Virus record (IMG/VR): IMGVR_UViG_3300045988_179859
DNA from: a virus
DNA: 64,000 nucleotides
Strand: one strand, 5' to 3'
Every line of letters begins with the position of its first letter. Position 1 is the first letter of the stretch. This document shows positions 3,783 to 55,521 of the stretch, in pieces. The position numbers were made by a program, and so were the translations under genes. The notes beneath the pieces were generated by a model. It was not told where the DNA came from. It was given only the letters and a program-made list of their open reading frames with translations, and ran no database searches.

Positions 3783-3816
3783 AAAATAAAAGACACTCGT
3801 AAGAGTGTCTTTTTTA
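3783..3816. terminator. bidirectional terminator aaagacactc-gtaa-gagtgtcttt
   Basis: A-run, then 10-bp stem, then T-run; near-identical copy at 59603-59640. Confidence 0.65.
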
Positions 3817-18193: not shown

Positions 18194-18946
18194 TTATTGT
18201 TGCCAAATGTTATATTCTTGTTTAAAGGCGTCTTTGATTTTTTGATTGGCGTCTTTATAGGTTGTTTTCTTAACTAGACTTCCCTGAACGACAATTCGAC
18301 CACGAGCATAGTTATCGGTGCATGTAATCAATGTTACGAGTGGGTCAGAATTTGGTCCTGGTTCATCCAAAACACTTGTTTCGGTTGGTTCAATTTTGCG
18401 CACGGATATAATTGTGTATGTGTATACATACTCTTTATCGGTCATGTAGATTTGTTGACCTTCTTGTGCGTGTTCAAGTGGTGAGAATAATAAACTAGTC
18501 GCACCCCAGATTCCGAAGACGTGGTGGCTGGCAAGACCGTAGTTACCTTGACCCATGACTTGATTTTCTTTTGTTGTTCCCGCTCCGTAGTAGAGACTTT
18601 GATCGTCAACTCCTTTGAAGATTGGCATGTTGATTCCTAAGTCGGGAATTGCGATACCTGCAATAACAGGGAGATCTTCAGGTGCGGGTGGTGGTGAGCT
18701 AATAACGCGATCGGGGTCAAGAGGTTTGACTTCTTCCCAGTTGTAATTGGCTGGGGCTTCTTCTGCGTTTTTCTTAAGAGTTTCTTTCGGTACGTTTGCG
18801 ACAATGAGTTTATTCGTTCGCGATGCCATTTTCGAATGAGCTATCGGTTTGTTGAACATAAGTGCAAACGCAAGACCGACTGTAAGTGCTAAATTTATGA
18901 GGATTAAGGCGATAAGTATGAGTCGCCTTGATTTAGATACCGGCAT
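18194..18946 (-). CDS. sortase
   Basis: N-terminal TM; catalytic TLITCT motif; conserved His upstream. Confidence 0.85.
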   Translation of the reverse strand: MPVSKSRRLILIALILINLALTVGLAFALMFNKPIAHSKMASRTNKLIVANVPKETLKKNAEEAPANYNWEEVKPLDPDRVISSPPPAPEDLPVIAGIAIPDLGINMPIFKGVDDQSLYYGAGTTKENQVMGQGNYGLASHHVFGIWGATSLLFSPLEHAQEGQQIYMTDKEYVYTYTIISVRKIEPTETSVLDEPGPNSDPLVTLITCTDNYARGRIVVQGSLVKKTTYKDANQKIKDAFKQEYNIWQQ

Positions 18947-23345: not shown

Positions 23346-23357
23346 GAAGGTACTAAA

Positions 23358-24284
23358 GTGGCAAAACAAGTATATAGTATTCCGTTCGATTTGAATAAGA
23401 CGCAAATGGACCGTCAGTTCCAGTTGCAGTCTAAGAAAAACGGAATCAAATTTACGAAAAAGCCGATCACTATGATGACGCTTGTTATCTGGGTTGCGGC
23501 GATTATGATTTTGATGTATGTTGAAATGAATAGTTTTATTGGACAAGGTTCTATCTTTGGTGGGATTTTGTTTGCTATTGGTTTCATTGCATTTGCTTAT
23601 TTGATGGGTCGACAAGATGAAACGCATCGATATGGCTATCAAGTATTACCGCTTTATATTCAATATGTTTTGAAGAAGGCGCGTGAATTAACATTGATTC
23701 GAAATACACCTTTGACAAAAGCTCGTCGATTTTTCGGTCTTAAGTTTATTGAGAAAAAGGGTATTGAATCTGGTGTTATTCGAATGATTGATAATCGATG
23801 GGCTCGTATTTATCAAGTGGTTGGTAATGCGTCTCTCATGTTGTTCGATGAAGATGCGACTCATGTCTTGGATAAAACTGCTAAGTTTTACAAGAGTATT
23901 CCTGAGGGTGTCGATGTGATTTTTGATACGGCTTCTGAACCGCAACGTGTTGATGAACAGCTTGCCGAATGTGAATATCGTAGATCTTTGGTGTATGATG
24001 ATTTACTTGTTGCATTGTATGACGAGCAAGAGTTTCTTTTAAGAGAAGCTGTTGGTGGTTATAAAGATGAGCATGCAATGATTGTTGAAGATGCTGATAA
24101 GTCAGATGAAGGGCATATTGCAATTCACCAATATATGATGTTGATTGCTGATTCAAAACAAGATTTGTACGAGGCTGAAGGTTTGGCGTTTGATGATATG
24201 AATAGGTCAGGGTATATGTTTAAATATATCAAACCGCTTGATTACGAAGAAGTTGTCAAATACTATAAGAATCTCTATACGTAA
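23358..24284 (+). CDS. membrane protein (2 N-terminal TM plus cytosolic domain)
   Basis: ORF, hydrophobic N terminus. Confidence 0.55.
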   Translation: MAKQVYSIPFDLNKTQMDRQFQLQSKKNGIKFTKKPITMMTLVIWVAAIMILMYVEMNSFIGQGSIFGGILFAIGFIAFAYLMGRQDETHRYGYQVLPLYIQYVLKKARELTLIRNTPLTKARRFFGLKFIEKKGIESGVIRMIDNRWARIYQVVGNASLMLFDEDATHVLDKTAKFYKSIPEGVDVIFDTASEPQRVDEQLAECEYRRSLVYDDLLVALYDEQEFLLREAVGGYKDEHAMIVEDADKSDEGHIAIHQYMMLIADSKQDLYEAEGLAFDDMNRSGYMFKYIKPLDYEEVVKYYKNLYT

Positions 24285-24286
24285 AA

Positions 24287-24330
24287 ATGAAAATAAAAAA
24301 TGGAAAAGTTGTGCGCTTTTCCTTTTTTTA
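24287..24330 (+). terminator. rho-independent terminator
   Basis: ggaaaag-N7-cttttcc followed by T7. Confidence 0.6.
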
Positions 24331-24376
24331 TGTTATAATAAGTAAGATTAATCTATAAGAAAGGACCTATTTTAAA

Positions 24377-26344
24377 GTGGCTTTAAAAAAGAAGAAAAAG
24401 AAGCAGTCTGTGAAAAAGGTTGCCGAGAAAAAACCACAAGCGAGTGTCGAAGAGGCTCCTGAAACAAATAAGTTGATTCGTCATTCTGATTTTATGAGTA
24501 GGATCAAACCTAAGAATAATTATTATTTCTTTAGTGATTATTTTGTGATTGATGGTTCAACGTATGGGTCAGTTCTAACATTGTTGCATAATGATGGTGC
24601 TGATAATAAACTTCCAAAGTTCTGGGGCGTTTTGGTTTCGTTGAATAACTGGGCGAACGATGAAGAATTTAAGGATGTTCGAATTCGATTTATTAATCAG
24701 GCGCGTAAACGTGATGATAACTGGGTTCGAACCAAACAAGTTCAATCAGAACGGGTTGTTGTATCTGACCAAGTGGAATCAAGTGGATTCTCGCGGAGTG
24801 ATAAAGCAACTGTTGGTGATAATGCGGAAGCTCTCGATCGTGTAACAGAAGAAATTCGTACGGGTGCCGCTTATTTAGATGTGCGTATGCATTATTTAAT
24901 TAAAGCGCCGTCACTTGATGTATTGGATAAAGCAGTTCGTCGTTTGAATCGTAATTTGCGAGATCATTTCGATACAGTTGTGGCTCGAGCGAAGTCTGGG
25001 GCTCAACGTCATGATTTGAATATGTTGCTTCGATCAACTGTTATGAATGATGAACGACAATTCGGTTTTACATCAGAAGAGTATGCTGGTTTTTATAATC
25101 TAGTAACACATGGTATCGAAGATTTGACCGGTGAATATGTTGGTCAGATGCGTGGTGATATTAACGCTTCGGCTGTGTTGTTTGATATTGATAAGTATCG
25201 ACATCATGTTGTAGTAGCGTCTGCGAGGGAAGCTCGGACGATGTCATATACGCAGGAAGAGTTGTCGCCTTATAAACCGCTAAAAGGTGCTGATATGTGG
25301 GGCGTCAAGATTGGACAAAACGCATTGATGAATCGACATCGGGTTGTTCATTTCGTACTAAACGGATCCGATATTCAATCGGTGGGTCTTGATTTATCTC
25401 GATTGACGGCGGACGTTAATATGAGTAAAGGATCGTTGAACCCGTTTGAAGTATTCGGTGAAAAACATGATGAAATGAACTTGTTTGCGGCTCAAACTGA
25501 GAAGATTATCCTGATGGCTCTTATGATGGTCAGTGGTGATGTGAAAGATGAATCATTGATCCGTACTGAACTGAATGATCTCTTGGCTGATTTCTATATT
25601 GACCAAAACATGTGGGTTAAAGATGCGTCAGATGCTATTAACCGAACACAAGTTAAGTTGGTTGGATTGCCTCACTCGGAATATCCACGGTTGCCTGAGT
25701 TTATCGCGTATATCAAACAAGAGTATGAAACACTCGCGCAAGGTGAACGTAACGAACCAGCTCGTCAAGAGCGTCTGAAATTGTTGCACGGTATCTTTAA
25801 AGAGATGCTTGCAAATAATGGTGATATTTTCGATACGATCACGTCTGATCGAATTGATGATGCTGATTATGATTCTCGGGTTATTTATGATTTTTCAGCA
25901 TTGCGTACGCGTGGTGATAACGTCGCAATGGCACAATTCGTAAATGTGTTGTCTTATGCGGTTCGATCTCTTGGTAAAGACGATGTGGTTATTGTTCATG
26001 GAACCGAATTAATTATGGATGTATTGAAACCGTATGTTTCTCGTCAGTTTGATGAATTGTTCAACAAGGGTGTTCGTGTTGTATACTGTTACGGTGATAT
26101 TGACGCGGTTCTCGACGACAAAGACTTTAACGATCTAGATGAAGCCGATTATACTTTGTTTGGACGTATGAGTTTGAACGATATTGATCGCTATCAAGAA
26201 ATTCTAGGTCGAGAAATTCCGAAGAATTTGAATGATTTGATTACGGCCGACAAAGACGAAAGTTGGTATCTGCGACGATCTTTTGAAAACGTGGTGTTCG
26301 ACTGTGACTTAGGGCTCGGCCTTTCTGTAGAAAGCGAGGTCTAA
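24377..26344 (+). CDS. hypothetical protein (655 aa), no P-loop
   Basis: Lys-rich N terminus; no Walker A despite sitting where a VirB4 would be expected. Confidence 0.6.
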   Translation: MALKKKKKKQSVKKVAEKKPQASVEEAPETNKLIRHSDFMSRIKPKNNYYFFSDYFVIDGSTYGSVLTLLHNDGADNKLPKFWGVLVSLNNWANDEEFKDVRIRFINQARKRDDNWVRTKQVQSERVVVSDQVESSGFSRSDKATVGDNAEALDRVTEEIRTGAAYLDVRMHYLIKAPSLDVLDKAVRRLNRNLRDHFDTVVARAKSGAQRHDLNMLLRSTVMNDERQFGFTSEEYAGFYNLVTHGIEDLTGEYVGQMRGDINASAVLFDIDKYRHHVVVASAREARTMSYTQEELSPYKPLKGADMWGVKIGQNALMNRHRVVHFVLNGSDIQSVGLDLSRLTADVNMSKGSLNPFEVFGEKHDEMNLFAAQTEKIILMALMMVSGDVKDESLIRTELNDLLADFYIDQNMWVKDASDAINRTQVKLVGLPHSEYPRLPEFIAYIKQEYETLAQGERNEPARQERLKLLHGIFKEMLANNGDIFDTITSDRIDDADYDSRVIYDFSALRTRGDNVAMAQFVNVLSYAVRSLGKDDVVIVHGTELIMDVLKPYVSRQFDELFNKGVRVVYCYGDIDAVLDDKDFNDLDEADYTLFGRMSLNDIDRYQEILGREIPKNLNDLITADKDESWYLRRSFENVVFDCDLGLGLSVESEV

Positions 26345-26345
26345 T

Positions 26346-29300
26346 GTGAAGAAGTTTAAATGGTTTATTCCACTGTTGCTCGTTGGGTTGACAGTCTTCG
26401 GTGGGAATTTGATTCAAAGTATCTCTCCATCAGCGGGGTCTGTGTTTGTACAGACGGTATATGCCGCTGACGATGAGGATAAAGACAAAGACGCAATTGA
26501 CAGTTCGATTTATGCGAAAGCCAGTGATATCGCAAATGCTTTCAACCAAGGTCTTTCAGCATTAGGTTCTGATAAAGACGAAGATGTTGAAAAAGCGAAT
26601 AAATTGCTCGACTTGGTTCGTCAGAATCCAACTTCAGCAACGAACGTGGGTAATGCTGGTGGAGCTCTTGGTTACGCGGATAATCCGACAGGTTTTGTTA
26701 GTCTTGGTACGAAGTTGAAAAACTGGATTATTTCGAAAGTGTCTGCAAACTCTTCAGCTTATAGTTATAAAGGTCTTGCGAACGTAACACTGAGTCCAAA
26801 CAATGACGATAGAGGCAATAGCGTTAAGACATCTTCTTTTATTGGATATGCTTTATACGGTAAGGCTTTGACTGAAAACGGTTATATGAAGATGGGTGAT
26901 TCGACTATCATTGGTACTGTTATTCAGTTTGGTCGCGTTATTGGTGGTATGATTATCTTGGTTCTTTATATGATCAATTTAGTCATTCCTGTGTTGTTCG
27001 CTGTTGTTCTTAAATTGATGATGATCTTCAATCCATTTGTTTGGTTGGCTAAAGGGTCAGGCGTTGCAAATGCAGCGACAGGCGGTTTATTGAAGAGTGC
27101 TATTGATACAAATATTCCGGGGGCTGAGTTCTTCGGAAACATGGTTCAAAGTTTCAATGGTCTTTATGCCGCGTTGACTTCGGCAGGATTGCTGTCTATT
27201 GTATTCTTGTTGATGTTCTTGATTGCGGGTGTATTCATCTTTGGTAAAATTGGTGGTGTTAAATCACGATTTGTCAAAATTGTGTTGCGTTTATTGATTA
27301 TTGTTTTAGGTATTCCTCTAGTAGGTGGTACTTATACATCAACTCTTAAGTGGCTTCAAAAAGAAGCAGCTGATTCAGGGGCTTCTGGTTATGTGAATTA
27401 TATCATTGCGTCATCGTTTATCCGTGTTGATTCATGGGTTGAAAATACGCGTTTGGCGCCTCCAACAGCAAAAGGTACGCTTGCTACGAGTCCGGGTGCT
27501 TCATTGATTAAGTATAATCCGAAAGAGATGGTTGCGTCTCGTGATACGCAAGATTTACGTCGAGTTGCGGCCGCAATTAATGTTATTGCCGCTCAAGGCG
27601 ATCATGAAGGAACTGGTTCAAATGATTGGGCTCGTGTTCTTGGAAATAATTTAGCAAGTACTAGTTCTAATGCAAGTGATGGATTAAGTTCATATCAAAG
27701 TGCTTCAGGCTATGGTAAAGATCAAGCAACTCTTGATAGCGGTGATTCGTTTACCGCTGATTTGAAAACGGTAGCTAATTCGTCAGCTGTATCATGGGTT
27801 GTAGATACCTTGTTCAAATTTATGGGATCTACTAAATACACGGGCGCCAACTACGATTCATTTGTTAAAGGTACAATTCATTCCAAACCTGGTTTGAAAG
27901 CCGCTAATGGATTGCTTTCATTGAACTTTGAGATCTTAGACAACGTTGGCGATTGGAAGAAAGATACATCGGAGGGCGTCAACAAAGGTTCAACGGGGTA
28001 CATTCTTTATGATGGTACTGGTATTAAAGGGCTAGGTGAGTCTGACGGTGGTAAAGGTGAAGGTGATGCAGGACGAGCTTTTGCTAAAGGCTATACTGAT
28101 CGTAAGTATAACTTCTATAACAATGGTTTCTTATCGGTAACACCTACAGGTAACGGGTTCATGGATAGTGATCAGGTTTCATATTATTTGAAATCAGGTG
28201 GATCTATTGCAAATGGTTCATGGCAAACGTCGCATTTGGATACAGCCGCGAATAATACCGGTTTTGGTTTTTCTGATTTGGCTATGTATAACTTCTTGAA
28301 TACATCGTTTGAAGGATCAGGTATGGTTGTTTATTCACCATCTAATTCGACAAGTATCTTGTCACTTGGTCAATATCAAACAGTTGTTATGCCGGGTCGT
28401 GGATTCGATGTGTTTATGTTATGGCTTGAAACGGTTGTTATTCTCCTAGTATTCGTTATTGTAGGTATTTTGTTCTGGTACGAAATGATTACTAAAGTGT
28501 TCTTCAATTTCTTCGGATTGTTGACGAATATCTTCGGTTCAGCGCTTGGATCACTTAACTTCTTTATGAAGATGGTTCTTTATGCAGGTGCCGCATTGAT
28601 CCAATTAGTAACTGCAATGGTGGCTTATTTAATGATTACACAAATCCTTATGGGTGTTGTGACAATGGCTAGTAAGTTGGCTGCAAATGCGACAATCGTG
28701 TTGCCTCTTGGTGCGATGAATATCCAAGCGGGTGCAACTATTGGTTCAGCTCTCGCTCGTATTCTTTCAATTTTCTTATTGTTGGCTATCGCCTTTAGTG
28801 CTCGCTACGTGTATAAAAAGCACGTAGCCAGTGCTATTATGGAATTCTTCACTGAAATGATTACGAAGTTTACTCATCGTTTGGATCAAGCTCAAGGTGG
28901 AGATGGAACGGCTGGTCAAAAGCTTCAAGCTGCTGGTGAGCAACACAAGAAAGACATTGATAAGTCTGATTATCAAGATGCTCTCGCACAAGAGAAAGCT
29001 CTTGATATGGAAGATCGTCGTCAAGGTAAACAAGGTCGTTCAAATGCTGAACTTCGAGCAGCCGCTCGAGCGAAAGCTATGCAAACTAAAGCAGCTCGAC
29101 TTAATGATGTGGCGCATGGTCGTACAAGTGAACATGCATTGAGCTCTGAAAAAGAATTGCAAGAAAGTCGTAAAGACCAGTTGGCTCAGAAGAAAGACGA
29201 AACGAACGAATATCGTCGTAATGCTCGTGAAATCAAGCGTAATTCTAAATTGTTGGAATCACGTGACTCTGCAATTGCTCAAGAAGTTGCTAAATATAAC

Positions 29301-31109
29301 AAAGATGTCGAGGGTAAAGGCTTTACATCTTTGGATCAAGGTTACGGTGACGTTGATGGTGACGGTCATGATATGGATCCTAAAACGATTAGTGATGAGG
29401 ATGCGGCGGCAAAAGCTGGTATCGGTAACTATGATGATCTGTATAAAGCAAATACGGAATTGAATCACGCTGAAAGTCAAATTCGAGGACGTATGTCTAA
29501 GAAACAGGAAGCCCGCGCTGATTTGATGAAAACTCGTGAAGGCAAACGTGCGGAATTGGAGAGCGCTAAGCGAAATCAATCACAAGTCGAAGGTCGTTTA
29601 GCTAATGCTATGCAGGTTCGAGATAAAGCACAAGGTGCTTTGGATGAAGCCATGGCTGGTGGCAATCAACCAACAATTGATGCCGCACGAGCTCGTTTGG
29701 CTGATGCTAACAGCAATGTCGCTAAGTTTGAACAACAATCTCAAGACGCGCAAAGCGAAGTTAGTGCCGCTCAAAAAGGTGTTGATGATGTAGATGCGCA
29801 ATTGGATGCGAACAATGAAGCTATCGCGGCGGACGACGCTGAACTTGACACAATTCGAAGCAATCGCGTATTGGTTCGTCGTGCTGCGAAGCACTTAGCT
29901 CGTAAGAGCGGTTTCCAATCGAATGTCGCTGGCGAAGTGCAACAAGTAACTTTGGCTGATGGTTCAAGAGGTACTGCGAAAGTCTTTAAGGGTGATCCTG
30001 ATAGAGCATTTAGTGATTTGACTAAATTGCGAAATTCTATGATTGAAGGTCAAGCACTTGAATCGCAATACAAATCTATGAAAGAATCTGATCCGGTCGG
30101 TGCTCAAAGAATCTATCAACAGCTTCAACAAAATAATCAACAACGTGCTTCTTCTGTACAAAATCTCGCCCAAATGGGATTCGATGTACAAAATATGACA
30201 ACACTTGATCAAGTGAATGAGGTTGGACAAGCGTTCGAGCAAGAATTCAATACTGTATCGGGTGGTCAAGGAAGTGTTGTTGTATCAGGTAATACTCAAG
30301 CGCGTTCAATCACACCGTACGGTCGTACGGTTAAAGCTCCTGTCGAAGGTGTCAAACCTGAGTTGTATACACCTCAAAATCAGGCGCCTGCACCGTTTAT
30401 TAATGGTCGTCAACAGCAAGTGGCATCACTTTATGATAACGGTGGTCCTGGAAATGTCGTACAGATGCCGACACGGACAGTGACTGCAACAAGTGGTCCA
30501 CAAAGTAATGACACTCGACGTACGATTCGAGCTAAACAAGAAACTCGAATTGTCAGTGGTGATCCATCTGTGGGTGTTGATCATCTCGATGTTATTTCTG
30601 AAGAACATGTTACACATGAGTCTGTCGGTGGTGGTGGCCCACGTAGAACGATTGTGAATCAAGTCCAAGGTTCACGTGTGGTTCAAGGGCAACCTTCTGT
30701 ACAGAGTCAATCTCCGATTATGAATCCGGTGTCAGGTGGTGTTTTAGGTGGTGGATATTCCGGACCAGCGCCTATTCAATCACAAGCGTCAGGTCCTCGT
30801 AATTTGGGAACGACGACTCTCACAACAGATACAACAGAATTTGTTCAAGGTGCTTCTAACGATACTCGTCGAACAGTTCGTCGTAATAACAATGTACGAG
30901 TTCAAGAACGGGCTTCTCAAGCAACAGATACTATTGAGGTTCGCGATGAAGGATTTGTTCAATACGAACAATCTCAACCGCAATCTCGACGGAATGTTGT
31001 TCGTACTACGAAAGGACAACCGAAAAGTCCAGTACAGCGTCCGGGTGTGACTTATGGGCCTAATAATAAGGTTCAACCGGCACCATTATCGCGTAAACCT
31101 AAAAAGTGA
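26346..31109 (+). CDS. giant polytopic membrane protein (1587 aa), VirB6/TcpH/ConG-like candidate
   Basis: signal peptide, two clusters of TM helices, long coiled-coil/Gln-rich C-terminal half. Confidence 0.7.
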   Translation: MKKFKWFIPLLLVGLTVFGGNLIQSISPSAGSVFVQTVYAADDEDKDKDAIDSSIYAKASDIANAFNQGLSALGSDKDEDVEKANKLLDLVRQNPTSATNVGNAGGALGYADNPTGFVSLGTKLKNWIISKVSANSSAYSYKGLANVTLSPNNDDRGNSVKTSSFIGYALYGKALTENGYMKMGDSTIIGTVIQFGRVIGGMIILVLYMINLVIPVLFAVVLKLMMIFNPFVWLAKGSGVANAATGGLLKSAIDTNIPGAEFFGNMVQSFNGLYAALTSAGLLSIVFLLMFLIAGVFIFGKIGGVKSRFVKIVLRLLIIVLGIPLVGGTYTSTLKWLQKEAADSGASGYVNYIIASSFIRVDSWVENTRLAPPTAKGTLATSPGASLIKYNPKEMVASRDTQDLRRVAAAINVIAAQGDHEGTGSNDWARVLGNNLASTSSNASDGLSSYQSASGYGKDQATLDSGDSFTADLKTVANSSAVSWVVDTLFKFMGSTKYTGANYDSFVKGTIHSKPGLKAANGLLSLNFEILDNVGDWKKDTSEGVNKGSTGYILYDGTGIKGLGESDGGKGEGDAGRAFAKGYTDRKYNFYNNGFLSVTPTGNGFMDSDQVSYYLKSGGSIANGSWQTSHLDTAANNTGFGFSDLAMYNFLNTSFEGSGMVVYSPSNSTSILSLGQYQTVVMPGRGFDVFMLWLETVVILLVFVIVGILFWYEMITKVFFNFFGLLTNIFGSALGSLNFFMKMVLYAGAALIQLVTAMVAYLMITQILMGVVTMASKLAANATIVLPLGAMNIQAGATIGSALARILSIFLLLAIAFSARYVYKKHVASAIMEFFTEMITKFTHRLDQAQGGDGTAGQKLQAAGEQHKKDIDKSDYQDALAQEKALDMEDRRQGKQGRSNAELRAAARAKAMQTKAARLNDVAHGRTSEHALSSEKELQESRKDQLAQKKDETNEYRRNAREIKRNSKLLESRDSAIAQEVAKYNKDVEGKGFTSLDQGYGDVDGDGHDMDPKTISDEDAAAKAGIGNYDDLYKANTELNHAESQIRGRMSKKQEARADLMKTREGKRAELESAKRNQSQVEGRLANAMQVRDKAQGALDEAMAGGNQPTIDAARARLADANSNVAKFEQQSQDAQSEVSAAQKGVDDVDAQLDANNEAIAADDAELDTIRSNRVLVRRAAKHLARKSGFQSNVAGEVQQVTLADGSRGTAKVFKGDPDRAFSDLTKLRNSMIEGQALESQYKSMKESDPVGAQRIYQQLQQNNQQRASSVQNLAQMGFDVQNMTTLDQVNEVGQAFEQEFNTVSGGQGSVVVSGNTQARSITPYGRTVKAPVEGVKPELYTPQNQAPAPFINGRQQQVASLYDNGGPGNVVQMPTRTVTATSGPQSNDTRRTIRAKQETRIVSGDPSVGVDHLDVISEEHVTHESVGGGGPRRTIVNQVQGSRVVQGQPSVQSQSPIMNPVSGGVLGGGYSGPAPIQSQASGPRNLGTTTLTTDTTEFVQGASNDTRRTVRRNNNVRVQERASQATDTIEVRDEGFVQYEQSQPQSRRNVVRTTKGQPKSPVQRPGVTYGPNNKVQPAPLSRKPKK

Positions 31110-31134
31110 TGAAAATTTTCATCACTTTTTTTTC
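31100..31134 (+). terminator. rho-independent terminator
   Basis: agtgatgaaaattttcatcact followed by T8. Confidence 0.65.
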
Positions 31135-31142
31135 GCACCTCT

Positions 31143-31171
31143 TGACAAACGATTTCATATTTGCTAAACTT
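31143..31171 (+). promoter_or_regulatory. sigma-A promoter TTGACA-17-TGnTAAACT
   Basis: same architecture as the leader promoters. Confidence 0.5.
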
Positions 31172-31267
31172 ATTATTGTAAAAACTTGCCCAAAAATAAT
31201 TAACGAAGGAGAATATTATGGATCTCAATAGGAGGGCAGGCGAGATTCATGGTAGATCATTAGTCCA

Positions 31268-31654
31268 ATGAATTCATTATTGACTAGCATTTACACCGAG
31301 CTTCCTGTCGGTGCGTGGGATTTGACGTCATTCCTTACAAATGCCTATAAACAAGTTGGCGAATGGGGTAAACTTTTGCTAATGCTCTTGGGTATTATCT
31401 TGATCGTTGTATCAGGTGTTAAGATCTGGCGTAACTTCACAAGTGAAAGCGCACAACGTCAACCTCGTTGGGGTATGACTATTTGCGGATTGCTCGTAGG
31501 TGGTGCTCTCTCTATTTCATCAGGTTGGACACTCTTGAACGATATCGCTCAAGGTGGTCAAAAGACTATCCAAGATTTGGGTGGTGGTGCTATTGTATTC
31601 AGTAATATTGTGGCACATCCCGCTGAAGCTATTCGTGCTTTGATTAGCTTCTAA
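31268..31654 (+). CDS. small 2-TM membrane protein (VirB2/VirB3-like candidate)
   Basis: 128 aa with two hydrophobic helices. Confidence 0.5.
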   Translation: MNSLLTSIYTELPVGAWDLTSFLTNAYKQVGEWGKLLLMLLGIILIVVSGVKIWRNFTSESAQRQPRWGMTICGLLVGGALSISSGWTLLNDIAQGGQKTIQDLGGGAIVFSNIVAHPAEAIRALISF

Positions 31655-31765
31655 TAGTTAGTACGGGATTGAAAGGCTAGGTGAAGACCTAGTCTTTTTT
31701 TTTTGTTGTGAAGTTGAAATATTTGTGATATAATAAGTCTATGACAAAACAGAAAGGGTTTTAAT

Positions 31766-33190
31766 ATGGCTTTTTGGAATAAGGGTATGACCGATGGTGG
31801 TGAAGATACCCGTAAGAATAAGTTAGATAAAGAATTTGACAAAGAAGCTGCCCGTGAAGAACGATTACGTAAATTTAAGATGGGTCAGCACAATATTATT
31901 GAGCGACAACTTGTAACGTTGGGTCTTGCGTTAGGTATTACGATTGTGGGAATCTCTATTTCTGCAAATGGTATGATTAAGAAAAACAGCCAAACGTTAT
32001 CAACAAAAGCAATTTATACGGAGCAAGCGGAATATTCTAAGAACTCAGCTGTTAAGGCGAAGGTTGTATCTGTCAACCGTTCTAAAGATGGAAAAACGGC
32101 TTACTTGTTGTTTTATTTTGAACAACCTGACCAAGTTTCGCAGGATGCTCGAAATTATAAAGTGTTCCTCTCAGCTTTTAATGATCGATTAAAAACCACA
32201 CCTGTTGGAAATATGTTCGTATTTGGTTCAACTGGTTATATGGGTGTTCGAATTCATGATGAAGCCGGTATTCCGAACCAGGTGTTAGATATTACGATTC
32301 GTTCTGAGAAAGATGTGGCAACGTCTAAACAAGATAATGAAAAAGCAACTCTTGAGAACGGATATGGTGAAACGTTTAGAAAATACAATCAGATCCGTTT
32401 TTATGCGAACTTTGGTGCGAAGAAAGCAACTGTTGTGGATTTAGCAAACGATGCATCGCCGTCTGAAATGTATTATCAATTAGTTGGTAAAGAAGAAGAT
32501 AAGAAATTGTTGGCTGAGTATGACGAAGAAGTTGCTTCTATCAAGACACAATTGGCTCGTATTGAAGAATATCAAACACGTATTGCCGATCGCGGTTACG
32601 ATGTACCAGAGCTTCCAGAAGTGTTCCGCGATATGAAAGTTACAGCCGATGGTCTTGAAACAACAGCAGTTGTTCCAGGTGGTTATAATTTGAAAGCGGG
32701 TTCTACGCTTCGTGATGGTTATTTGAAACAGTTAATTACTGGCGATATTGATGAAGATGATATTTCTAATTTGTTGGCTGTCAAGTCAGCTGAAACGAGT
32801 GGTTCGTTAACGAAGCAAGTTCAAAAATCAGATGGTACGTATGAAACCGTTGAGGTCAATATTGATAAGTCTAAATTAAAAGGTTTAGCGACAGTTGGTA
32901 ACGACGTACAGTCTTCACTTCAAATCAGAACGTTGAAGAAAACAGGTAGTGACCAAACGCTTGAGCTGAGCGCTGTTCAATCGGATCTTAATTCATCTAC
33001 GGAAATGGCTGTGGCGAAAGATGCGGAACAGTTGAGTCAAGCGTATCAAGCGCTATTCCAATCGTTGCAAAAGGTTCAGGTTACAATTAACCGTAAGCGT
33101 GTTGCTTTGGATGAAGGAATGTTATCACAAAAAACCCTTTATACTCAAACATCAGGTGCGAAGACATTTAATGTTTGGCAACAAAAATAA
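31766..33190 (+). CDS. membrane-anchored extracytoplasmic protein (474 aa), VirB8/TcpC-like candidate
   Basis: single N-terminal TM then about 390 aa outside the membrane. Confidence 0.5.
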   Translation: MAFWNKGMTDGGEDTRKNKLDKEFDKEAAREERLRKFKMGQHNIIERQLVTLGLALGITIVGISISANGMIKKNSQTLSTKAIYTEQAEYSKNSAVKAKVVSVNRSKDGKTAYLLFYFEQPDQVSQDARNYKVFLSAFNDRLKTTPVGNMFVFGSTGYMGVRIHDEAGIPNQVLDITIRSEKDVATSKQDNEKATLENGYGETFRKYNQIRFYANFGAKKATVVDLANDASPSEMYYQLVGKEEDKKLLAEYDEEVASIKTQLARIEEYQTRIADRGYDVPELPEVFRDMKVTADGLETTAVVPGGYNLKAGSTLRDGYLKQLITGDIDEDDISNLLAVKSAETSGSLTKQVQKSDGTYETVEVNIDKSKLKGLATVGNDVQSSLQIRTLKKTGSDQTLELSAVQSDLNSSTEMAVAKDAEQLSQAYQALFQSLQKVQVTINRKRVALDEGMLSQKTLYTQTSGAKTFNVWQQK

Positions 33191-33278
33191 GAATAAGCCC
33201 GTCCAATTCGGGCTTTTTTGAGACTTTTTAGGGCTTTTGTGATATAATAGGCTTAGTTATTTGCAGAAAGGAATAGTC

Positions 33279-33986
33279 ATGGCGAAATTGTCAAAAGAAA
33301 AGAAACTAAAATATGGTGATCGTGATCACTTAGTTTCTATTAAAACAAAATCAGGTAAAGAGATAGGCGGTCGTTTTTTTGATTGGTTGTTGCCTAGATG
33401 GTCTGTAGTACCAGTTGTCGTCTGCGGTTTAATTGTTGGTGGTAGCGTTGTAGGCAATATTTTACAGAATAAAGTAGTTGAATCTCGTAATGAACAGCTT
33501 GTTGCTAAGATTAAAACAGCTAAAGCAGAATTAAAACGCGAAAAGAAATCAGTCAAACCGAGTGTGATTTATAAAGATGTGGCGGTTCAAACTCATAATG
33601 CTGGTGCTACGGGTAAAGCGGTTGCTGATAGTATGATGACTGTTACGAAGAAACAAGATGTTTCTACAAGGGCGTCTGTGTCGGATGATGATGCTGTTAA
33701 GGCTACGAATGTTTTGATGAAGTCTTTGGATAAGAGCGCGTCTGAGTGGTCTAAGGTTAAATCGTGGTTGAAGCGACCTGATTGGACGCTAACGTTTGAG
33801 TCAGATGTTCCTTTTGAGGGCACGGATGTTCAAACAATGTTTACGATTAAGGATGGTTCTGGAAAAACAGTAGGTTATGTTCTTGCGAAGTATGATGCTG
33901 TCGAAGATTTGTTTACGAATGTCAAAACTGTATACGTGAAAGATGTTCGTGATTTGAAATTGGATGGGGGAACTAAGCATGAATAA
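33279..33986 (+). CDS. membrane-anchored protein, paralogue A
   Basis: start chosen at the SD-preceded MAKLSK; N-terminal TM; C-terminal domain paralogous to 36683-37405. Confidence 0.6.
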   Translation: MAKLSKEKKLKYGDRDHLVSIKTKSGKEIGGRFFDWLLPRWSVVPVVVCGLIVGGSVVGNILQNKVVESRNEQLVAKIKTAKAELKREKKSVKPSVIYKDVAVQTHNAGATGKAVADSMMTVTKKQDVSTRASVSDDDAVKATNVLMKSLDKSASEWSKVKSWLKRPDWTLTFESDVPFEGTDVQTMFTIKDGSGKTVGYVLAKYDAVEDLFTNVKTVYVKDVRDLKLDGGTKHE

Positions 33987-34572
33987 GTATAAGAATTTGA
34001 TTAAGAACGTTCTGGTTACGATTGTTACAATGTTTGTTACGTGGATTTCCTTATTGCTGATTAGTGTGTTTTTAGCGGGTCCGTCGAAGTTGAATTCACA
34101 GTTGAAAGATATGTATGCGTCCGTGCGAAACCAGATTGTTGATGCGCGCGGTGTGTCGCATTCGAAAAAGACAGAGACTAAGAAAAATATTAAAGGTGTT
34201 TCGACTGATATTTTTGAAGATGATTCAAAACAAGCGGAAAAGGCGTTCAAGTCATATTTGGCAATTGATTCGGCTAAGGATTACACCGATGTTAAAAAAC
34301 TTGTAACGAATCAGTTTACATCCGAATCGAATTTTGTTAAAATGTTTTTTGAAAGCGATACATTTACGAATAAAATGTCGTTTAAATCATTGGATGTTAT
34401 TATGAAATCGTGGTCTGAAGACGGATCTGTTGCGTATAATGGTATTTTAAGCTATACTGTTAATGGTAAAGAGCATCGTCGATTGGTTACATTTACTATG
34501 TTTTATAACACGGATGATCGTACTAGTCGTGATTTGAAAGATGTTCAAGTAAATGATGCTGAATTTATGTAG
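33979..34572 (+). CDS. membrane-anchored protein, paralogue B
   Basis: start at the SD-preceded MNKYKN; paralogous to 37405-38064. Confidence 0.6.
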   Translation: MNKYKNLIKNVLVTIVTMFVTWISLLLISVFLAGPSKLNSQLKDMYASVRNQIVDARGVSHSKKTETKKNIKGVSTDIFEDDSKQAEKAFKSYLAIDSAKDYTDVKKLVTNQFTSESNFVKMFFESDTFTNKMSFKSLDVIMKSWSEDGSVAYNGILSYTVNGKEHRRLVTFTMFYNTDDRTSRDLKDVQVNDAEFM

Positions 34573-34585
34573 AAAGGCGTAGGGT

Positions 34586-36565
34586 ATGGCTGAAGATAAA
34601 GAATTGAAAGGATCTATTCAAGGAAATGAATCTCCGCAGAATCCGCCAAAAGAACCGAAGTCATCGATTGAAAAAGCAGGTGACGAATTAAAGGAGCAAG
34701 CGAAGTCGGATCCAAAATTAAAAGATCCGGGTGGTAAAGGTCTTGATAAAGATCAACCAGAACCACCTTCGTTGAAGGATGCGTTCAAGAAAAACTCAAA
34801 CGATGATGGTGGTAAAGGTCTTCTTGGTAAAGCTAAGGGTAGCGGAAAAGGTTCGAAAAATGATTCTCCCGAAGATGCTTTAAAAGGAAAACTGCAAGAT
34901 ACCGGTAAGAAGATAGCAAAAGAAGCGGCAAAACCTGCGGGTAAAGCGGGAGCTGCGACTCTCGGTGGTAATATCTTTATGGGTGCGATGAATCAAGCGG
35001 CTACAGCGTCGGTTGGTTTGTTCGCGGCTATTCTCGGATTTATTGTCGACATGGTTGTCGGTATCGTTGGTTTTGTTGGTGGTCTGATTATGGGACTTCT
35101 GACGTTTACTTGGCAGATGGTCGTTATGGCCGTGTCTGGGACAATTGCTATTATTAGTGTTGTTGTGATGATTATTGCACAGAGTAACCAGGTACAGCGG
35201 GCTCGTGCTGCTGATGAAGCGTTCAGATGTAATGATGCCAACGTGGAGAATCGCGCGAAACAAAAGATTTCGGCGGCCAAGAAAGGTGAACTTTCTGCTG
35301 AAGATCAAGCCCGTGTTGATGAAAACTCTAAGAAAACACTTTCTGTGTTGACGAAATACGGATTGGACGAAACGCAAATTGCGGCTGTTTTGGGAGCTTG
35401 GAATTCTGAATCAAGTATTCAACCGAAACGTTATGAAACGGACTATATTGTTAAAGAAAAATATGATCAATTGGATAAAGATGGTCCTACAGCCGAATCA
35501 TTAGTAGGTGGTTGGGGTGCGTTTCTTGCAATGTATAATGGTACTGGTCTTAATGAGAGTGGTTATCTTCATGAAGGTAAACATTATATCGGGGTAGGTC
35601 TTGGTCAATGGACAGGTCCTCGTGCGAAACAATTGTGGGACTTTTCTAAGTCGATTAAAAAATCGATGTTCGACATGGATACTCAGTTGGCGTTTATGAT
35701 CAGTGATAACGATAGTGGTAAATCTCGATTGGATGCGTATAAAGAAGCGTCTAAAGGTAAATCTGTGGATGAAGCTACTGCGTTGTTCTTAGCAATGTGG
35801 GAGGGTGTGCCTGGTAATAAATTAGCAGCCCGACAACAGGCCGCCGCTGAACGTTTGATTGCGATTAAGAAGATGGATAAAGATGAAGCATATGCCGCGT
35901 CAATCTTATCTCTTGCAAACGTTAAAGCCTCTGCGGCAAATAGTAAACAGTCTAAATTGAATGAAAAAGATGACTGTGGTGTTGCTCTTAAAGATAGTGG
36001 AGCTGTTGATTATGCCGAAGATGGTACTGGTGAATTTCCTGCGGGTATTACGGGATACGCTTGGAAACCAAAGGATCTACCAAAAGAACTCAAACCGTAT
36101 GTGAAAGATCCAGCAAAAGTTGGAATGTCGTATGGTTCACGTAAAGGTTGGGCTGAAGGATCTGGGCAGTGTGTTGACTTGACTGAATCATATGGTACGT
36201 GGATTTGGAAGGGTGCTGTTTCTGTTGTTCAAGGTAATGGTAATCAACAAGCAAACGCTTGGGCTAATATTTTCGGAACAAAAGTTTCAAAAGATCCTAT
36301 TAAAGCCGGTTCTATTTTCTCAACACCTGGTCCGAGCAGTGCGGGTCATACCGGTATTGTGGTTCATATTTTTAAGAATCGCGATATTATGGTTGTAGAG
36401 CAGAATTTTGATAAGTTTTCAGGTTCTGATTTCGCCGGGTTGCCTAATACGTGGAATTATCGTTATATCAAAAAAGCTCAGTATGAACAAGAAGGTATGA
36501 CTTTTGCGGCACCTAAAGATGGTAAGCCTGATTGGGACGGCAAGGGAAAAACTTCTAAGAAATAA
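34586..36565 (+). CDS. bifunctional peptidoglycan hydrolase (lysozyme/muramidase-like plus C-terminal CHAP), VirB1 analogue
   Basis: glycine-zipper TM region; CHAP Cys (GSGQCVD) and His (AGHTGIV); central GLGQWTGPRA lytic domain. Confidence 0.8.
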   Translation: MAEDKELKGSIQGNESPQNPPKEPKSSIEKAGDELKEQAKSDPKLKDPGGKGLDKDQPEPPSLKDAFKKNSNDDGGKGLLGKAKGSGKGSKNDSPEDALKGKLQDTGKKIAKEAAKPAGKAGAATLGGNIFMGAMNQAATASVGLFAAILGFIVDMVVGIVGFVGGLIMGLLTFTWQMVVMAVSGTIAIISVVVMIIAQSNQVQRARAADEAFRCNDANVENRAKQKISAAKKGELSAEDQARVDENSKKTLSVLTKYGLDETQIAAVLGAWNSESSIQPKRYETDYIVKEKYDQLDKDGPTAESLVGGWGAFLAMYNGTGLNESGYLHEGKHYIGVGLGQWTGPRAKQLWDFSKSIKKSMFDMDTQLAFMISDNDSGKSRLDAYKEASKGKSVDEATALFLAMWEGVPGNKLAARQQAAAERLIAIKKMDKDEAYAASILSLANVKASAANSKQSKLNEKDDCGVALKDSGAVDYAEDGTGEFPAGITGYAWKPKDLPKELKPYVKDPAKVGMSYGSRKGWAEGSGQCVDLTESYGTWIWKGAVSVVQGNGNQQANAWANIFGTKVSKDPIKAGSIFSTPGPSSAGHTGIVVHIFKNRDIMVVEQNFDKFSGSDFAGLPNTWNYRYIKKAQYEQEGMTFAAPKDGKPDWDGKGKTSKK

Positions 36566-36682
36566 TTCTTTTGCGAAAACCTGTAATTCTATTATAGGTT
36601 TTCTTTTAAAATGTTTTATTTTTGGCGTTTTTTAAGATATTGTGATATAATGTTAGTATGTTTTGATGAAAGGAAATATGTG

Positions 36683-37405
36683 ATGGTTAAACATAAAGAT
36701 AAAAAAGAAAAACCATCTTTCAAAGATGCTTTTGCTGAAGGACGTAATAAATTTACACCGCATACGAAAACAGGTGCTACGTATGGTGAAGCGTTGACGT
36801 CAAATTTGGCGAAGAATTGGTCTGTTATTCCAAGTTTGATTGCGTTGGTTGTAGCCGGAGCTGTTGCGTTGACAATGCAAAATAATATTCAGACAAGAAC
36901 TCAACAGATTACTCAAATCGAATCTAAGATTAAAGGTCTTCAAAATAAGTTGGATTTAGCAAAAAATAGTAGTAGCGAAAAAGTTGTTAAAAAAACAGTT
37001 GATGTTAAGATGCATAATGCAACAGATGCGGGAAATCGATTGATTAAGTATGAAACTGACTTAATGAGATTGATGGATATTACTATTGCGGGAGATACTC
37101 CGTCGAAAGAACATATCCAAGAAGCTTTTGATACACAAGATAAAATTCAAAAAATGACTGGTTTGAATGAAAGTGAAGCCGCTGCTACATGGATCAAAAT
37201 TCCATCTTGGACGATGGAATTCAAATCAGTTGTTTCTTATGAAGGTAATGAAATTCCGTCATTGTTTATTCTTAAAGATGATAAGGGTGATCTGATGGGT
37301 CTTGTTACGGCTGTGTATCATGCAGATACGGATTCGTTCTCAAATGTGAATGTAACATATACTACAGCGGGTGATGCTGTTAACTATAATCGGGGTGGTC
37401 GCTAA
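36683..37405 (+). CDS. membrane-anchored protein, paralogue A'
   Basis: start moved to the SD-preceded MVKHKD because the ORF's 5' end overlaps its own promoter. Confidence 0.6.
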   Translation: MVKHKDKKEKPSFKDAFAEGRNKFTPHTKTGATYGEALTSNLAKNWSVIPSLIALVVAGAVALTMQNNIQTRTQQITQIESKIKGLQNKLDLAKNSSSEKVVKKTVDVKMHNATDAGNRLIKYETDLMRLMDITIAGDTPSKEHIQEAFDTQDKIQKMTGLNESEAAATWIKIPSWTMEFKSVVSYEGNEIPSLFILKDDKGDLMGLVTAVYHADTDSFSNVNVTYTTAGDAVNYNRGGR

Positions 37406-38064
37406 TGAAAAGAAATACAATCAATACAATTATTTTGACTGGCGCGGCTGTTATTAGTGCTAGTTTGATCGGATTTTCTGTAGTAACTGCGTCGCAAATG
37501 GATACGAAATATAGTCGTTTACAATCCGAATATAAAACGATGCAGACTGAAATTGCACGTAATCGTAAAGAAAATGTAAAAGTTGTAACTGAGACCGAGA
37601 AAAATATTCAGGGTGTCTCTAATCAACAACTTAAAGAAGATAAACGTCAAGCGAGTATTTATTTTGCACCAGCGTTCACATGGACGTCTGGTAATGAATA
37701 TGATGCAACACGCAAATCTTATATTGATAAACTTGGAACTGATTCGCAATTTGTACAGAATTATTTGAAAGAAAATATTCGAATTGAAGTTGCGAATAAG
37801 AATCTTAAAAACAATGATATCGACATTCAAGGTTTGAAATCAAACTTTGAAGAAATGGTGCTTTATCCAACAACGTGGAAGCCAGATGGTACTATTACGT
37901 ATGTTGGTGTTATTAAGTATTATGTGTTTAAGAACGAATCTGATTTGAATGATAAAACAGGACTTCTTAAATCAAAAGCCGTTGTTGAATTTACTATGTC
38001 TGGTGCTAATGCGAAAGACCGTCAAATTTCTGACGTGAAAGCATACGCTGGATCTCTCGAATAA
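37405..38064 (+). CDS. membrane-anchored protein, paralogue B'
   Basis: TAATG coupling; N-terminal TM. Confidence 0.6.
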   Translation: MKRNTINTIILTGAAVISASLIGFSVVTASQMDTKYSRLQSEYKTMQTEIARNRKENVKVVTETEKNIQGVSNQQLKEDKRQASIYFAPAFTWTSGNEYDATRKSYIDKLGTDSQFVQNYLKENIRIEVANKNLKNNDIDIQGLKSNFEEMVLYPTTWKPDGTITYVGVIKYYVFKNESDLNDKTGLLKSKAVVEFTMSGANAKDRQISDVKAYAGSLE

Positions 38065-38090
38065 TAGAAAGGAAAGGGTCTTCAATATCT

Positions 38091-38399
38091 ATGAACGTGA
38101 CATTTTTTGACACACATCCACGAACTAAATTAATTTATTACACGCTTGCCTTCTTTACATCAATTATTGTTTGGATTGCTGCAATTTTCTCTATTAGTGC
38201 GTCTGCGTATGTACTTATTATTGGAACAGGTGGTAATGCCGTATTGATGTTGGGGCTTGGAATTGTTTCGCTATTGCCGTTGAGTTTATTGATGACGATG
38301 TTTGCATACAATGGTATTAAAAAGCGTGGTGATCGAATGGTTTCTGCTTATAAATTAGAATGGTCAGAATTTAGAAAACGTCGTGCTGAAAAAAAGTAA
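38091..38399 (+). CDS. small 3-TM membrane protein
   Basis: 102 aa, hydrophobic. Confidence 0.5.
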   Translation: MNVTFFDTHPRTKLIYYTLAFFTSIIVWIAAIFSISASAYVLIIGTGGNAVLMLGLGIVSLLPLSLLMTMFAYNGIKKRGDRMVSAYKLEWSEFRKRRAEKK

Positions 38400-38440: not shown

Positions 38441-38532
38441 ATAGCGTAGTGAATACTACGCTATTATTTCTTTGCCGGTTTAAAGGAAACCGTGCACGCG
38501 GCTTTTTCCAGTCGTAAATGAAAGGAAAACAA

Positions 38533-39114
38533 ATGGCAGATTTTCGTGGTAAATCCTATAAGGATGTTCGATTGTATGTGGTTGACAAGCCAATTTTTGA
38601 GATCAAAAAGCAAGGCGAACCGACAGGACGTTATTGGATGAATATTTCCGCAGCGAACGATAAGTTTGAAAACGAGAAAGATTTTATTGATCGTCCATCG
38701 CTCGGATATGGTCGTCCATATCAAGATAAAAACGGTGAAACGCAGTATGATCATTCTATGGCATACAGTAAATCACAACTCGATCGAATTGCATCCGCAG
38801 TTGGGCTAGATCCAGAGAACTATGATGTTCAAGAACTTCGTGGGAAAACCTTCCGTGGTGATTTGATGCAAGCGTCATCTAAATCTCAAAAAGGTTTGAT
38901 CGTGAACACTAGTAAAATGCTTAAAGCAGATGAACCTTTGGATAAAGCAGCTCATGATGCAAATACAGCTCGTGCTGCAGAATTGAGACCTGAACGTGAC
39001 GCAGAAATTAAAGCGAAAGCACAGGAAGCATCTGAAAAAGCACCAGCGCCCGAAGTACAACAAGAAGCTGAATCTCAAGGTCTTGAGATCTCTGATGATG
39101 ATCTTCCGTTCTAA
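38533..39114 (+). CDS. SSB-like protein with canonical acidic tip …DDDLPF
   Basis: the C-terminal tip matches the SSB-Ct motif; N-terminal segment VRLYVVDKP…GRYWMNISAAND resembles the SSB OB fold (VILVGN…VRYMPNG.AVANITLAT). Confidence 0.6.
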   Translation: MADFRGKSYKDVRLYVVDKPIFEIKKQGEPTGRYWMNISAANDKFENEKDFIDRPSLGYGRPYQDKNGETQYDHSMAYSKSQLDRIASAVGLDPENYDVQELRGKTFRGDLMQASSKSQKGLIVNTSKMLKADEPLDKAAHDANTARAAELRPERDAEIKAKAQEASEKAPAPEVQQEAESQGLEISDDDLPF

Positions 39115-55485: not shown

Positions 55486-55521
55486 AAAGAAAAACTCTAG
55501 CGAAATGCTAGAGTTTTTTTA
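55486..55521. terminator. bidirectional terminator shared by convergent genes
   Basis: A7, then actctagc-N5-gctagagt, then T7. Confidence 0.65.

Follow-up and report, generated by a model that had tools for sequence, protein, structure and literature searches.

VirB4 is the motor protein that the DNA-transfer machines known as type IV secretion systems (T4SSs) are thought to need. In the present work, we have analyzed a 64,000 nucleotide stretch of DNA from the virus record IMGVR_UViG_3300045988_179859 (hereafter the window), in which the VirB4 position of a conjugation gene cluster is occupied by a 655 amino acid (aa) protein without recognizable ATPase motifs. One study describes VirB4 as a universal T4SS marker that defines the T4SS classes (PMC4027160), the pipelines that score plasmid mobility require it (PMC9185392), and a 2025 review states that in the Gram-positive VirB4 homologues both Walker motifs, A and B, are still present (PMC12857230). 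A conserved departure from this pattern is RvhB4-II of the Rickettsiales rvh T4SS, which is retained although its members "lack conserved ATPase active sites" (PMC4676284); beyond RvhB4-II, our full-text literature searches found no conserved VirB4 lacking the Walker motifs. Our analyses point to a new case, viz. a pLS20/MobL-related Gram-positive T4SS whose sole VirB4 is predicted from its sequence to be both split between two genes and catalytically dead.

The closest sequence relatives of the 655 aa protein are the pLS20-type VirB4s (viz. those of L. plantarum pPLAN631, WP_216747576; L. brevis, ARN96447; and Priestia megaterium, WP_322552813). Like the 655 aa protein, these are ~650 aa in length and keep the NPF motif, and their genes, which are preceded by one for a small TrsD-like protein and followed by one for a lysozyme, are carried on plasmids with MobL/MOB_P relaxases. 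However, the pLS20-type proteins keep the motifs GxxGxGKS and hhhhDE, whereas the clade of the window protein has neither. In the pSK41/pIP501 systems, a small protein (TrsD/TraD) is likewise encoded upstream of a VirB4 of ~650 aa (TrsE/TraE), as a 308 aa protein is in the window; the latter differs from TrsD/TraD in having an additional two-helix membrane hairpin, and TrsE is a live ATPase. Sequence identity of the window protein to the C-terminal domain of the Thermoanaerobacter pseudethanolicus VirB4 (4ag5/4ag6) and to TrwK of R388 (7o42, 8rtd) is 7–17%, and, unlike these proteins, it lacks the catalytic motifs and has its N-terminal part encoded by a separate gene. It resembles RvhB4-II in being a conserved dead VirB4 homologue, presumably a structural or regulatory subunit, but RvhB4-II always occurs together with an intact RvhB4-I in a Gram-negative effector secretion system, whereas the window copy is apparently the sole VirB4 of a Gram-positive DNA conjugation system.

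We assign the region to a conjugative T4SS of the Gram-positive MobL/pLS20-related lineage, of which it forms the mating-channel module; a MobL relaxase, a VirD4-type coupling protein whose NTP site is intact and a cell-wall hydrolase are all encoded in the window. The initial annotation had described the interval 23358–38399 as encoding topoisomerase III (Topo III), a coupling protein, a relaxase and a VirB1-like hydrolase together with channel proteins, and had found no recognizable VirB4 ATPase. All four of the named genes are present according to Pfam, but only the hydrolase gene lies inside this interval; Topo III ends just before it, and the relaxase and coupling-protein genes are located outside (Table 1). 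The assertion regarding VirB4 was too strong, since a homologue is recognizable by profile and by structure and just its ATPase motifs are missing. A canonical hidden Markov model (HMM), built from 12 Gram-positive (Firmicute) VirB4s and applied to every stop-to-stop frame of the window, matches the 655 aa open reading frame (ORF) at an E value of 1.8e-20 (69 bits) and gives no other match in any window frame. In phmmer comparisons, the 655 aa protein matches the L. plantarum, L. brevis and Priestia VirB4s at E values of 3e-23, 3.5e-23 and 2.6e-14, respectively, the first two of which keep intact P-loops (GRPGSGKS and GRPRMGKS). With an HMM of the dead family, the two Lactobacillaceae proteins score 118–120 bits and the Priestia VirB4 scores 69 bits, and tblastn searches of the plasmid database PLSDB reach genes whose annotations read VirB4, "conjugation-related ATPase" or "ATPase" on Priestia, Lactiplantibacillus, Listeria and Bacillus plasmids. 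At the level of sequence, these pLS20-type relatives are the decisive evidence for VirB4 homology, and because the nearest live relatives adjoin a membrane protein of the "pLS20_p028 family" and also a lysozyme, the 655 aa protein belongs to the pLS20-type VirB4 branch.

The predicted structure of the 655 aa protein, modelled from 44 relatives with a predicted local distance difference test (pLDDT) score of 78, matches the full-length TrwK/VirB4 of R388 in Foldseek (E 1.2e-14) and contains a RecA-like C-terminal domain with the VirB4-specific fold; the degenerate VirB4 fold for which the initial annotation had proposed a check is thus found. Taken together, the profile and structural matches indicate that the 655 aa protein is a true VirB4 homologue. 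Other searches returned little: no Pfam or NCBIfam match was obtained, with the VirB4 models remaining below threshold; a scan of 44 aligned family members gave only faint hints of the N-domain (TraC_F_IV 0.043, CagE_TrbE_VirB 0.19); neither phmmer nor a profile search against PDB sequences retrieved anything; and hhalign against PrgJ alone yielded nothing, while against a VirB4 alignment the local probability was just 21%. None of the more than 241 relatives retrieved by database search carries a Pfam domain. Several other large ORFs in the window were considered as VirB4 candidates and rejected, viz. the 832 aa upstream ORF, which is Topo III, and the ORFs of 619, 768 and 621 aa, which show no P-loop and no HMM match.

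A six-frame scan of the window for the pattern [GA]xxxxGK[ST] found two occurrences within real ORFs, both of them in a Clp-like AAA+ gene, and together with the VirB4 HMM this upholds the earlier observation that no window ORF carries the VirB4/TraE Walker A motif. The accompanying observation that the 655 aa protein lacks a P-loop is likewise confirmed, as no P-loop of any kind was detected in it by motif scan, MAFFT alignment or comparison across 124 distinct family sequences. In the MAFFT alignment, every canonical VirB4 keeps both the P-loop (GxxGxGK[ST], or GKG in PrgJ) and hhhhDE; both motifs are missing in six proteins, viz. the window protein and its homologues from pGKT2, two Staphylococcus plasmids, Lactococcus pJM1A and pELF. 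In these six proteins, the place of the P-loop is taken by a variable insert, after which comes a conserved "MWGSKISQ" helix; the window protein and its clade carry a 14-residue insert (GDINASAVLFDIDK) before strand beta-1. The Walker B position reads VVIVHGTE (residues 537–544 of the 655 aa protein), where HG replaces DE at residues 541–542. The six have also lost the sensor Gln from the "TQ" motif, with the downstream NPF motif kept.

The loss of Walker A and of DE is shared across the family. Among the 124 sequences, H541 is present in 122 and G542 in all, DE is found in none, and there is no conserved GK[ST]. An exhaustive HMMER scan of 1.84 billion cluster representatives recovered 356, 271 and 159 clusters at E value thresholds of 1e-3, 1e-10 and 1e-30, respectively. 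Walker A is absent from all of the 109 full-length representatives (50% clusters) taken from the top 150 of these (109/109), and DE is replaced in them by HG or, occasionally, by YG, QG, NG, TG, QS, HS or HR. Judging from these comparisons, the loss of the motifs is ancient and extends across a large clade. It is unlikely, in our view, that the 655 aa protein is instead a divergent motor, with a non-canonical site at which nucleotide is still bound or hydrolysed. Such a site could draw on several (nearly) invariant residues close to the former active site (K311 in 123/124 sequences, D536 in 124/124, an acidic residue at 544 in 121/124, and also R501 and R512), and in the pattern hhhhHGx[DE] an acidic residue is kept two positions past the old catalytic Glu. 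However, the loop between strand beta-1 and the next helix is variable in both length and sequence and is not glycine-rich, and the Walker A Lys/Ser, the Walker B Asp/Glu and the sensor Gln have been lost as a set. To our knowledge, no ASCE (additional strand, catalytic E) ATPase works without a P-loop.

The gene immediately upstream would account for the N-terminal part of VirB4 that the 655 aa protein does not cover. Its 308 aa product has two transmembrane (TM) segments (37–55 and 66–84) which form a two-helix hairpin, followed by an alpha/beta domain. The NCBIfam model VirB4_plasma, for the VirB4 of mycoplasma integrative and conjugative elements, matches this protein over model positions 8–274 of 894 (E 1.5e-4); the top 7 PDB matches of its AlphaFold2 model (pLDDT 75) in Foldseek are all TrwK/VirB4 chains (E 2e-3 to 9e-3); and hhalign places its residues 124–294 on columns 30–199 of PrgJ-type VirB4s (E 6e-4) and also on TrsD (E 3e-4). 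The 655 aa family aligns on columns 223–765 of the same long PrgJ-type proteins. The TrsD/TraD small proteins of pSK41/pIP501/pLS20-type T4SSs also align to residues 11–250 of PrgJ-type VirB4s (hhalign probability 97%, E 7.5e-11), and since they correspond to the N-termini of long VirB4s, split VirB4s are normal in this part of the family; from these alignments, short VirB4s in general appear to be split VirB4s. We infer that the 308 and 655 aa proteins together represent a VirB3-like hairpin plus a full VirB4, in which the 308 aa protein would supply the membrane hairpin and the first N-terminal subdomain and the 655 aa protein the remaining N-terminal domain and the RecA-like C-terminal domain, the latter of which keeps the VirB4 fold. 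In a set of 84 related loci used for the neighbourhood counts, the 308 aa gene is present in 80, always directly upstream of the VirB4 homologue, and the triad of 308, 655 and 1587 aa genes is retained in 80/84.

The gene order of the window is shared with described plasmids. The Gordonia sp. KTR9 plasmid pGKT2 (NC_018580; complete, 182 kb) is fully syntenic with it from Topo III to the coupling protein, and the order common to the window, pGKT2 and Staphylococcus is the topoisomerase, a 296/279 aa protein, the dead VirB4, the giant membrane protein, the lysozyme, MobL, the Clp-like AAA+ protein, a coiled-coil protein and the large coupling protein. Identities to pGKT2 and to Staphylococcus plasmids of 55–65 kb (e.g. 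NZ_CP150776) are 24–40%, and the channel genes of these plasmids are annotated just as hypothetical proteins. The Gordonia counterparts are 39% (655 aa protein and AAA+ protein), 40% (coupling protein and topoisomerase) and 24–30% (membrane components) identical to those of the window; the ~39% identity of the 655 aa protein applies to its Actinomycetota homologues. One difference is that pGKT2 has genes for a UvrD-like helicase (21699–23810) and a helix-turn-helix protein between its 296 aa partner protein and the dead VirB4, neither of which is found in the window. The E. faecium linear plasmids pELF carry a more distant dead VirB4 (656 aa, IVMIHGFD, 22% identity) along with a 288 aa partner, a Clp-like AAA+ protein and a lysozyme. 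In the clinically important pELF_JHP9, this distant cluster is located at 15.5–43 kb of the record, separate from the tra operon that was shown to be essential in 2026; in pELF2, the experimentally essential genes traC, traD and traG belong to a separate FtsK-type operon (PMC13492992). The pELF tra operon was considered as an equivalent of the window system and rejected, being a different locus around an FtsK-type motor, as was the pWBG4 (det) conjugation system of Staphylococcus, which differs in relaxase class and gene content.

In a scan limited to one genome per species, the family is present in 115 loci, most of them from Actinomycetota (viz. Streptomyces, Nocardiopsis, Arthrobacter, Kribbella, Promicromonospora, and Microbacterium), with those from Bacillota coming from Paenibacillus, Evansella, and metagenome-assembled genomes of Lachnospiraceae and Clostridia. 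The clade as a whole spans Streptomyces, Nocardiopsis, Arthrobacter, Gordonia, Rhodococcus, Staphylococcus, Lactococcus, Paenibacillus and gut Clostridia. The ratio of nonsynonymous to synonymous substitution rates (dN/dS) in comparisons with two close relatives is 0.03 for the 655 aa gene, at a dS of ~0.5, and ~0.03–0.035 for the upstream 308 aa gene; the 655 aa gene is under strong purifying selection and is not decaying. These ratios bear on the possibility that the channel module is an inactive relic and that the element moves by mobilization in trans or, as in pELF, by means of an FtsK-type system. MOB-suite types pGKT2 as just mobilizable and the Staphylococcus plasmid as non-mobilizable, and the essential tra genes of pELF map to another locus, as such a reading would have it; however, the MOB-suite calls are circular in this context because they depend upon the recognition of mating-pair genes such as VirB4. 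The low dN/dS of both VirB4 pieces, the intact and co-oriented state of all ORFs over 35 kb, the synteny and ~40% identity maintained between Bacillota and Actinomycetota, and the failure of Pfam scans to reveal any FtsK/TraB-type gene in the window make an inactive relic very improbable.

The initial annotation had also raised the possibility that a VirB4 gene lies outside the window, which our results disfavour. In all six frames of the complete pGKT2, the dead homologue is the sole match of the canonical VirB4 HMM. No recurrent Walker A ATPase was found within 10 kb on either side in the 84 loci. The gene list of a complete 55.5 kb S. aureus plasmid with the same gene set contains no VirB4, and the canonical HMM gave no match on it; as the model missed this plasmid's own dead copy as well, the HMM evidence is weaker there and the case rests on the gene list. 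A 703 aa "AAA family ATPase" encoded beside the pGKT2 homologue was rejected as a substitute motor, as it resembles UvrD and other family members lack it as a conserved neighbour. We therefore regard it as very unlikely that the element has a gene for a canonical, ATP-hydrolysing VirB4 beyond the window and that the 655 aa protein is an accessory paralogue comparable to RvhB4-II. In favour of such an arrangement are the precedent of RvhB4-II itself, a dead paralogue beside a live one (PMC4676284), and the extent of the window, which is less than the whole element (related contigs reach 144–231 kb). Against it, pGKT2 carries the dead homologue alone, and the dead protein fills the canonical VirB4 slot, between the VirB3-like and VirB6-position proteins and upstream of the hydrolase. 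Regarding function, Jung et al. (2011), as cited in PMC5640721, are reported to have moved pGKT2 out of Gordonia KTR9 in experiments, with Gordonia, Rhodococcus and Nocardia as recipients.

The loss of all of the ATP-handling motifs would imply that a widespread conjugation system is powered in another way. Two ATPases encoded in the window are candidates, and the suggestion in the initial annotation of a different energizing ATPase holds to the extent that both are intact. The coupling protein has a VirD4-style P-loop (AITRAGKGQT) and Walker B motif (YMLDELG) and is 40% identical to the coupling proteins of Gordonia, Rhodococcus and Streptomyces plasmids. In the Clp-like AAA+ protein, both of the Walker A (GPAGVGKT, GASGVGKT) and both of the Walker B motifs (FIDEF, LLDEI) are intact. 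This protein matches the NCBIfam models ClpV1, ClpA and ClpB at ~1e-68, and because its scores fall far under the ClpA/ClpB/ClpV equivalog cut-offs, it constitutes a separate subfamily. That the AAA+ protein specifically took over the motor role of VirB4, thereby allowing VirB4 to decay, is possible but doubtful. Copies with intact motifs are present in all four of the dead-VirB4 systems examined (the window, pGKT2, which has two, the S. aureus plasmid, and pELF), the protein is about as conserved as the coupling protein, and its best NCBIfam match is the type VI secretion ATPase ClpV. However, the same AAA+ protein is present on L. plantarum plasmids together with a Walker A-bearing VirB4 (in NZ_CP121256, Clp is located at 35266–36978 and the GRPGSGKS VirB4 at 53812–55764), and its gene adjoins those of the relaxase and coupling protein, outside the channel module, which suggests a role in substrate processing. 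Because it co-occurs with live VirB4s, the AAA+ protein is older than the loss and cannot be called a dedicated substitute; a specific VirB4 replacement was accordingly rejected, and the initial suggestion is plausible but not specific. It may be an older feature of the lineage that made the loss of the VirB4 ATPase tolerable.

We consider it probable that the T4SS of this pLS20/MobL lineage contains a split, non-catalytic VirB4 scaffold and that ATP is used by the coupling protein and perhaps the AAA+ protein. A divergent pseudo-ATPase scaffold was among the possibilities raised initially, and it is supported by the VirB4 homology of the 655 aa protein, the clade-wide loss of its motifs and the purifying selection on its gene, with no other VirB4 in the window or in pGKT2. 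Under this interpretation, the 655 aa protein would no longer hydrolyse ATP and would be kept as the structural hub of an inner-membrane complex, where it would dock the hairpin protein, the bitopic proteins and the polytopic protein that occupies the VirB6 position. The ATP-driven steps would be carried out by the intact VirD4-type coupling protein, with a possible contribution from the Clp-type AAA+ protein, e.g. in relaxase unfolding or channel remodelling. A number of observations weigh against this interpretation. Taken singly, the lines of evidence that the 308 aa protein is a piece of VirB4 are weak (E 1e-4 to 1e-2), although they are concordant; the occurrence of the AAA+ protein alongside a GRPGSGKS VirB4 bears on the energy source; and the invariant K311, D536 and acidic residue 544 could in principle form an unconventional site. 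The canonical HMM missed not only the Staphylococcus but also the pELF dead copies, so a very divergent VirB4 could escape it, and the window does not take in the remainder of this element. The reported transfer of pGKT2 could have been aided by a helper element present in the donor, and the dead-VirB4 cluster is not proven necessary for transfer anywhere, because the essential tra genes of pELF are in a different, FtsK-type locus.

The broader proposition, that a T4SS clade spanning phyla operates without ATP hydrolysis by VirB4 and that its channel assembly and DNA export are driven by the coupling protein alone, with or without a Clp-like unfoldase, has in our estimation about an even chance of being correct. 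If it is true, the one component considered to be universal, and essential for its catalysis, now acts purely as a scaffold, and at least several hundred elements scored as non-conjugative would be self-transmissible. Relatives of the 655 aa protein are present in 295 PLSDB records, of which MOB-suite types 159 as non-mobilizable and 109 as mobilizable, and the dead VirB4 clade helps to explain why many large Gram-positive plasmids are typed as non-mobilizable or just mobilizable. Since neither Pfam nor NCBIfam has a model for the family, annotation would benefit immediately from a profile based on its members. The clade also represents a natural experiment on the role of the VirB4 ATPase in Gram-positive systems that lack pili.

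The locations of these genes and of other features of the window are summarized in Table 1. The window has a G+C content of ~40%, and its centre (~15.4–55.5 kb) is a single co-oriented gene array on the + strand, in which most of the ORFs between the Pfam-identified genes have no Pfam family match. A megablast comparison of the region with PLSDB gave no match.

Table 1. Positions of the features identified in the window and the evidence for each assignment
Feature	Position	Strand	Evidence
Alp/ParM-type partition ATPase	15394–16611	+	Pfam
Sortase	18194–18946	-	Pfam
Topo III (832 aa), first conserved gene of the transfer operon	20847–23345	+	Toprim 1.6e-10, Topoisom_bac 2.3e-37
308 aa protein, TM hairpin and VirB4 N-terminal-like domain	23358–24284	+	TM calls, profile and structure matches
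655 aa VirB4 homologue, predicted pseudo-ATPase	24377–26344	+	Profile, structure, motif loss
1587 aa polytopic membrane protein, VirB6 position	26346–31109	+	Hydrophobic segments, synteny
128 aa small membrane protein with two TM segments	31268–31654	+	Two hydrophobic segments
474 aa bitopic protein	31766–33190	+	One TM segment at 49–67
First bitopic pair (241 aa and 202 aa, overlapping ORFs)	33261–34572	+	One N-terminal TM segment each
659 aa cell-wall hydrolase	34586–36565	+	Phage_lysozyme2 2.5e-23, CHAP 4.7e-9; internal TM segments 143–197
Second bitopic pair (264 aa and 219 aa)	36611–38064	+	One TM segment each; paralogues of first pair
102 aa small multi-TM protein	38091–38399	+	Hydrophobic segments 25–68; no family match
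MobL (MOB_L/MOB_P2-related) relaxase	42175–44367	+	Pfam MobL 9.2e-29; NCBIfam MobP2 5.5e-18
Clp/Hsp100-type double AAA+ ATPase	45132–47138	+	AAA 4e-20, AAA_2 3.5e-36
768 aa coiled-coil protein, C-terminal TM segment 672–690	47193–49499	+	Hydrophobic segment
1282 aa VirD4-type coupling protein	51637–55485	+	Pfam T4SS-DNA_transf, TraG-D_C, TrwB_AAD_bind
LPXTG surface adhesin, GbpC and SSSPR-51 repeats	57218–59602	+	GbpC 1.2e-48, SSSPR-51 2.4e-44

The remaining components of the channel module are mostly assigned by position. The 1587 aa protein, which adjoins the VirB4 homologue in 80/84 loci and is 25–26% identical to a 1272 aa protein of pGKT2, has a signal/TM segment and hydrophobic clusters at 192–327 and 692–817 (roughly six to eight helices), followed by a long, low-complexity, coiled-coil C-terminal half. 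It has no match to any Pfam or NCBIfam model, including those for VirB6, TcpH and pLS20_p028, and its designation as VirB6-like is a guess from position. Homologues of the 128 aa protein, a possible pilin-like or VirB2-position protein, are found at 28 loci and in pGKT2, and those of the 474 aa bitopic protein, a conserved channel component, at 29 loci and in pGKT2. The 659 aa hydrolase is the analogue of VirB1, PrgK and CwlT. It is flanked by two paralogous bitopic pairs, which represent a tandem duplication of a two-gene module and whose translations have the C-terminal motif W..P.WT..F.S.V..EG in common. The four proteins of these pairs are putative VirB8-like candidates on positional grounds, and a rough alignment of the candidates with PrgL and its neighbours was uninformative.

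Of the genes that surround the channel module, Topo III is found at 54/84 loci, the relaxase is 25% identical to the annotated MobL of pGKT2, and the 768 aa coiled-coil protein is weakly similar to the positionally equivalent 866 aa protein of pGKT2. Two proteins encoded between the channel module and the relaxase (198 aa, 38518–39114; 619 aa, 39181–41040) have no family match; a repeated module of ~60 aa ("...RY.M..S/TxAND K/L...") occurs once in the former and twice in the latter. A 621 aa protein (49616–51481), whose gene lies between those of the coiled-coil and coupling proteins, contains a region of DUF7487 repeats and, at its C-terminus, a segment with weak likeness to GNAT.

The window also encodes a sortase alongside an LPXTG adhesin that carries a GbpC (antigen I/II-type) domain and four SSSPR-51 repeats, a set which resembles the aggregation substances of enterococcal plasmids; the adhesin is probably a mating-aggregation factor. 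Genes for a class A penicillin-binding protein (transglycosylase and transpeptidase; 5553–7775, - strand) and a PASTA-domain protein (7794–9011, - strand) are an unusual cargo and are possibly linked to cell-wall remodelling at mating junctions. Lastly, this conjugative element carries a phage-like replication/modification module comprised of a C5 cytosine methylase, a protein resembling deoxynucleoside monophosphate kinases and a D5-type primase-helicase (3814–4947, 10605–11252 and 11264–12919, all on the - strand).

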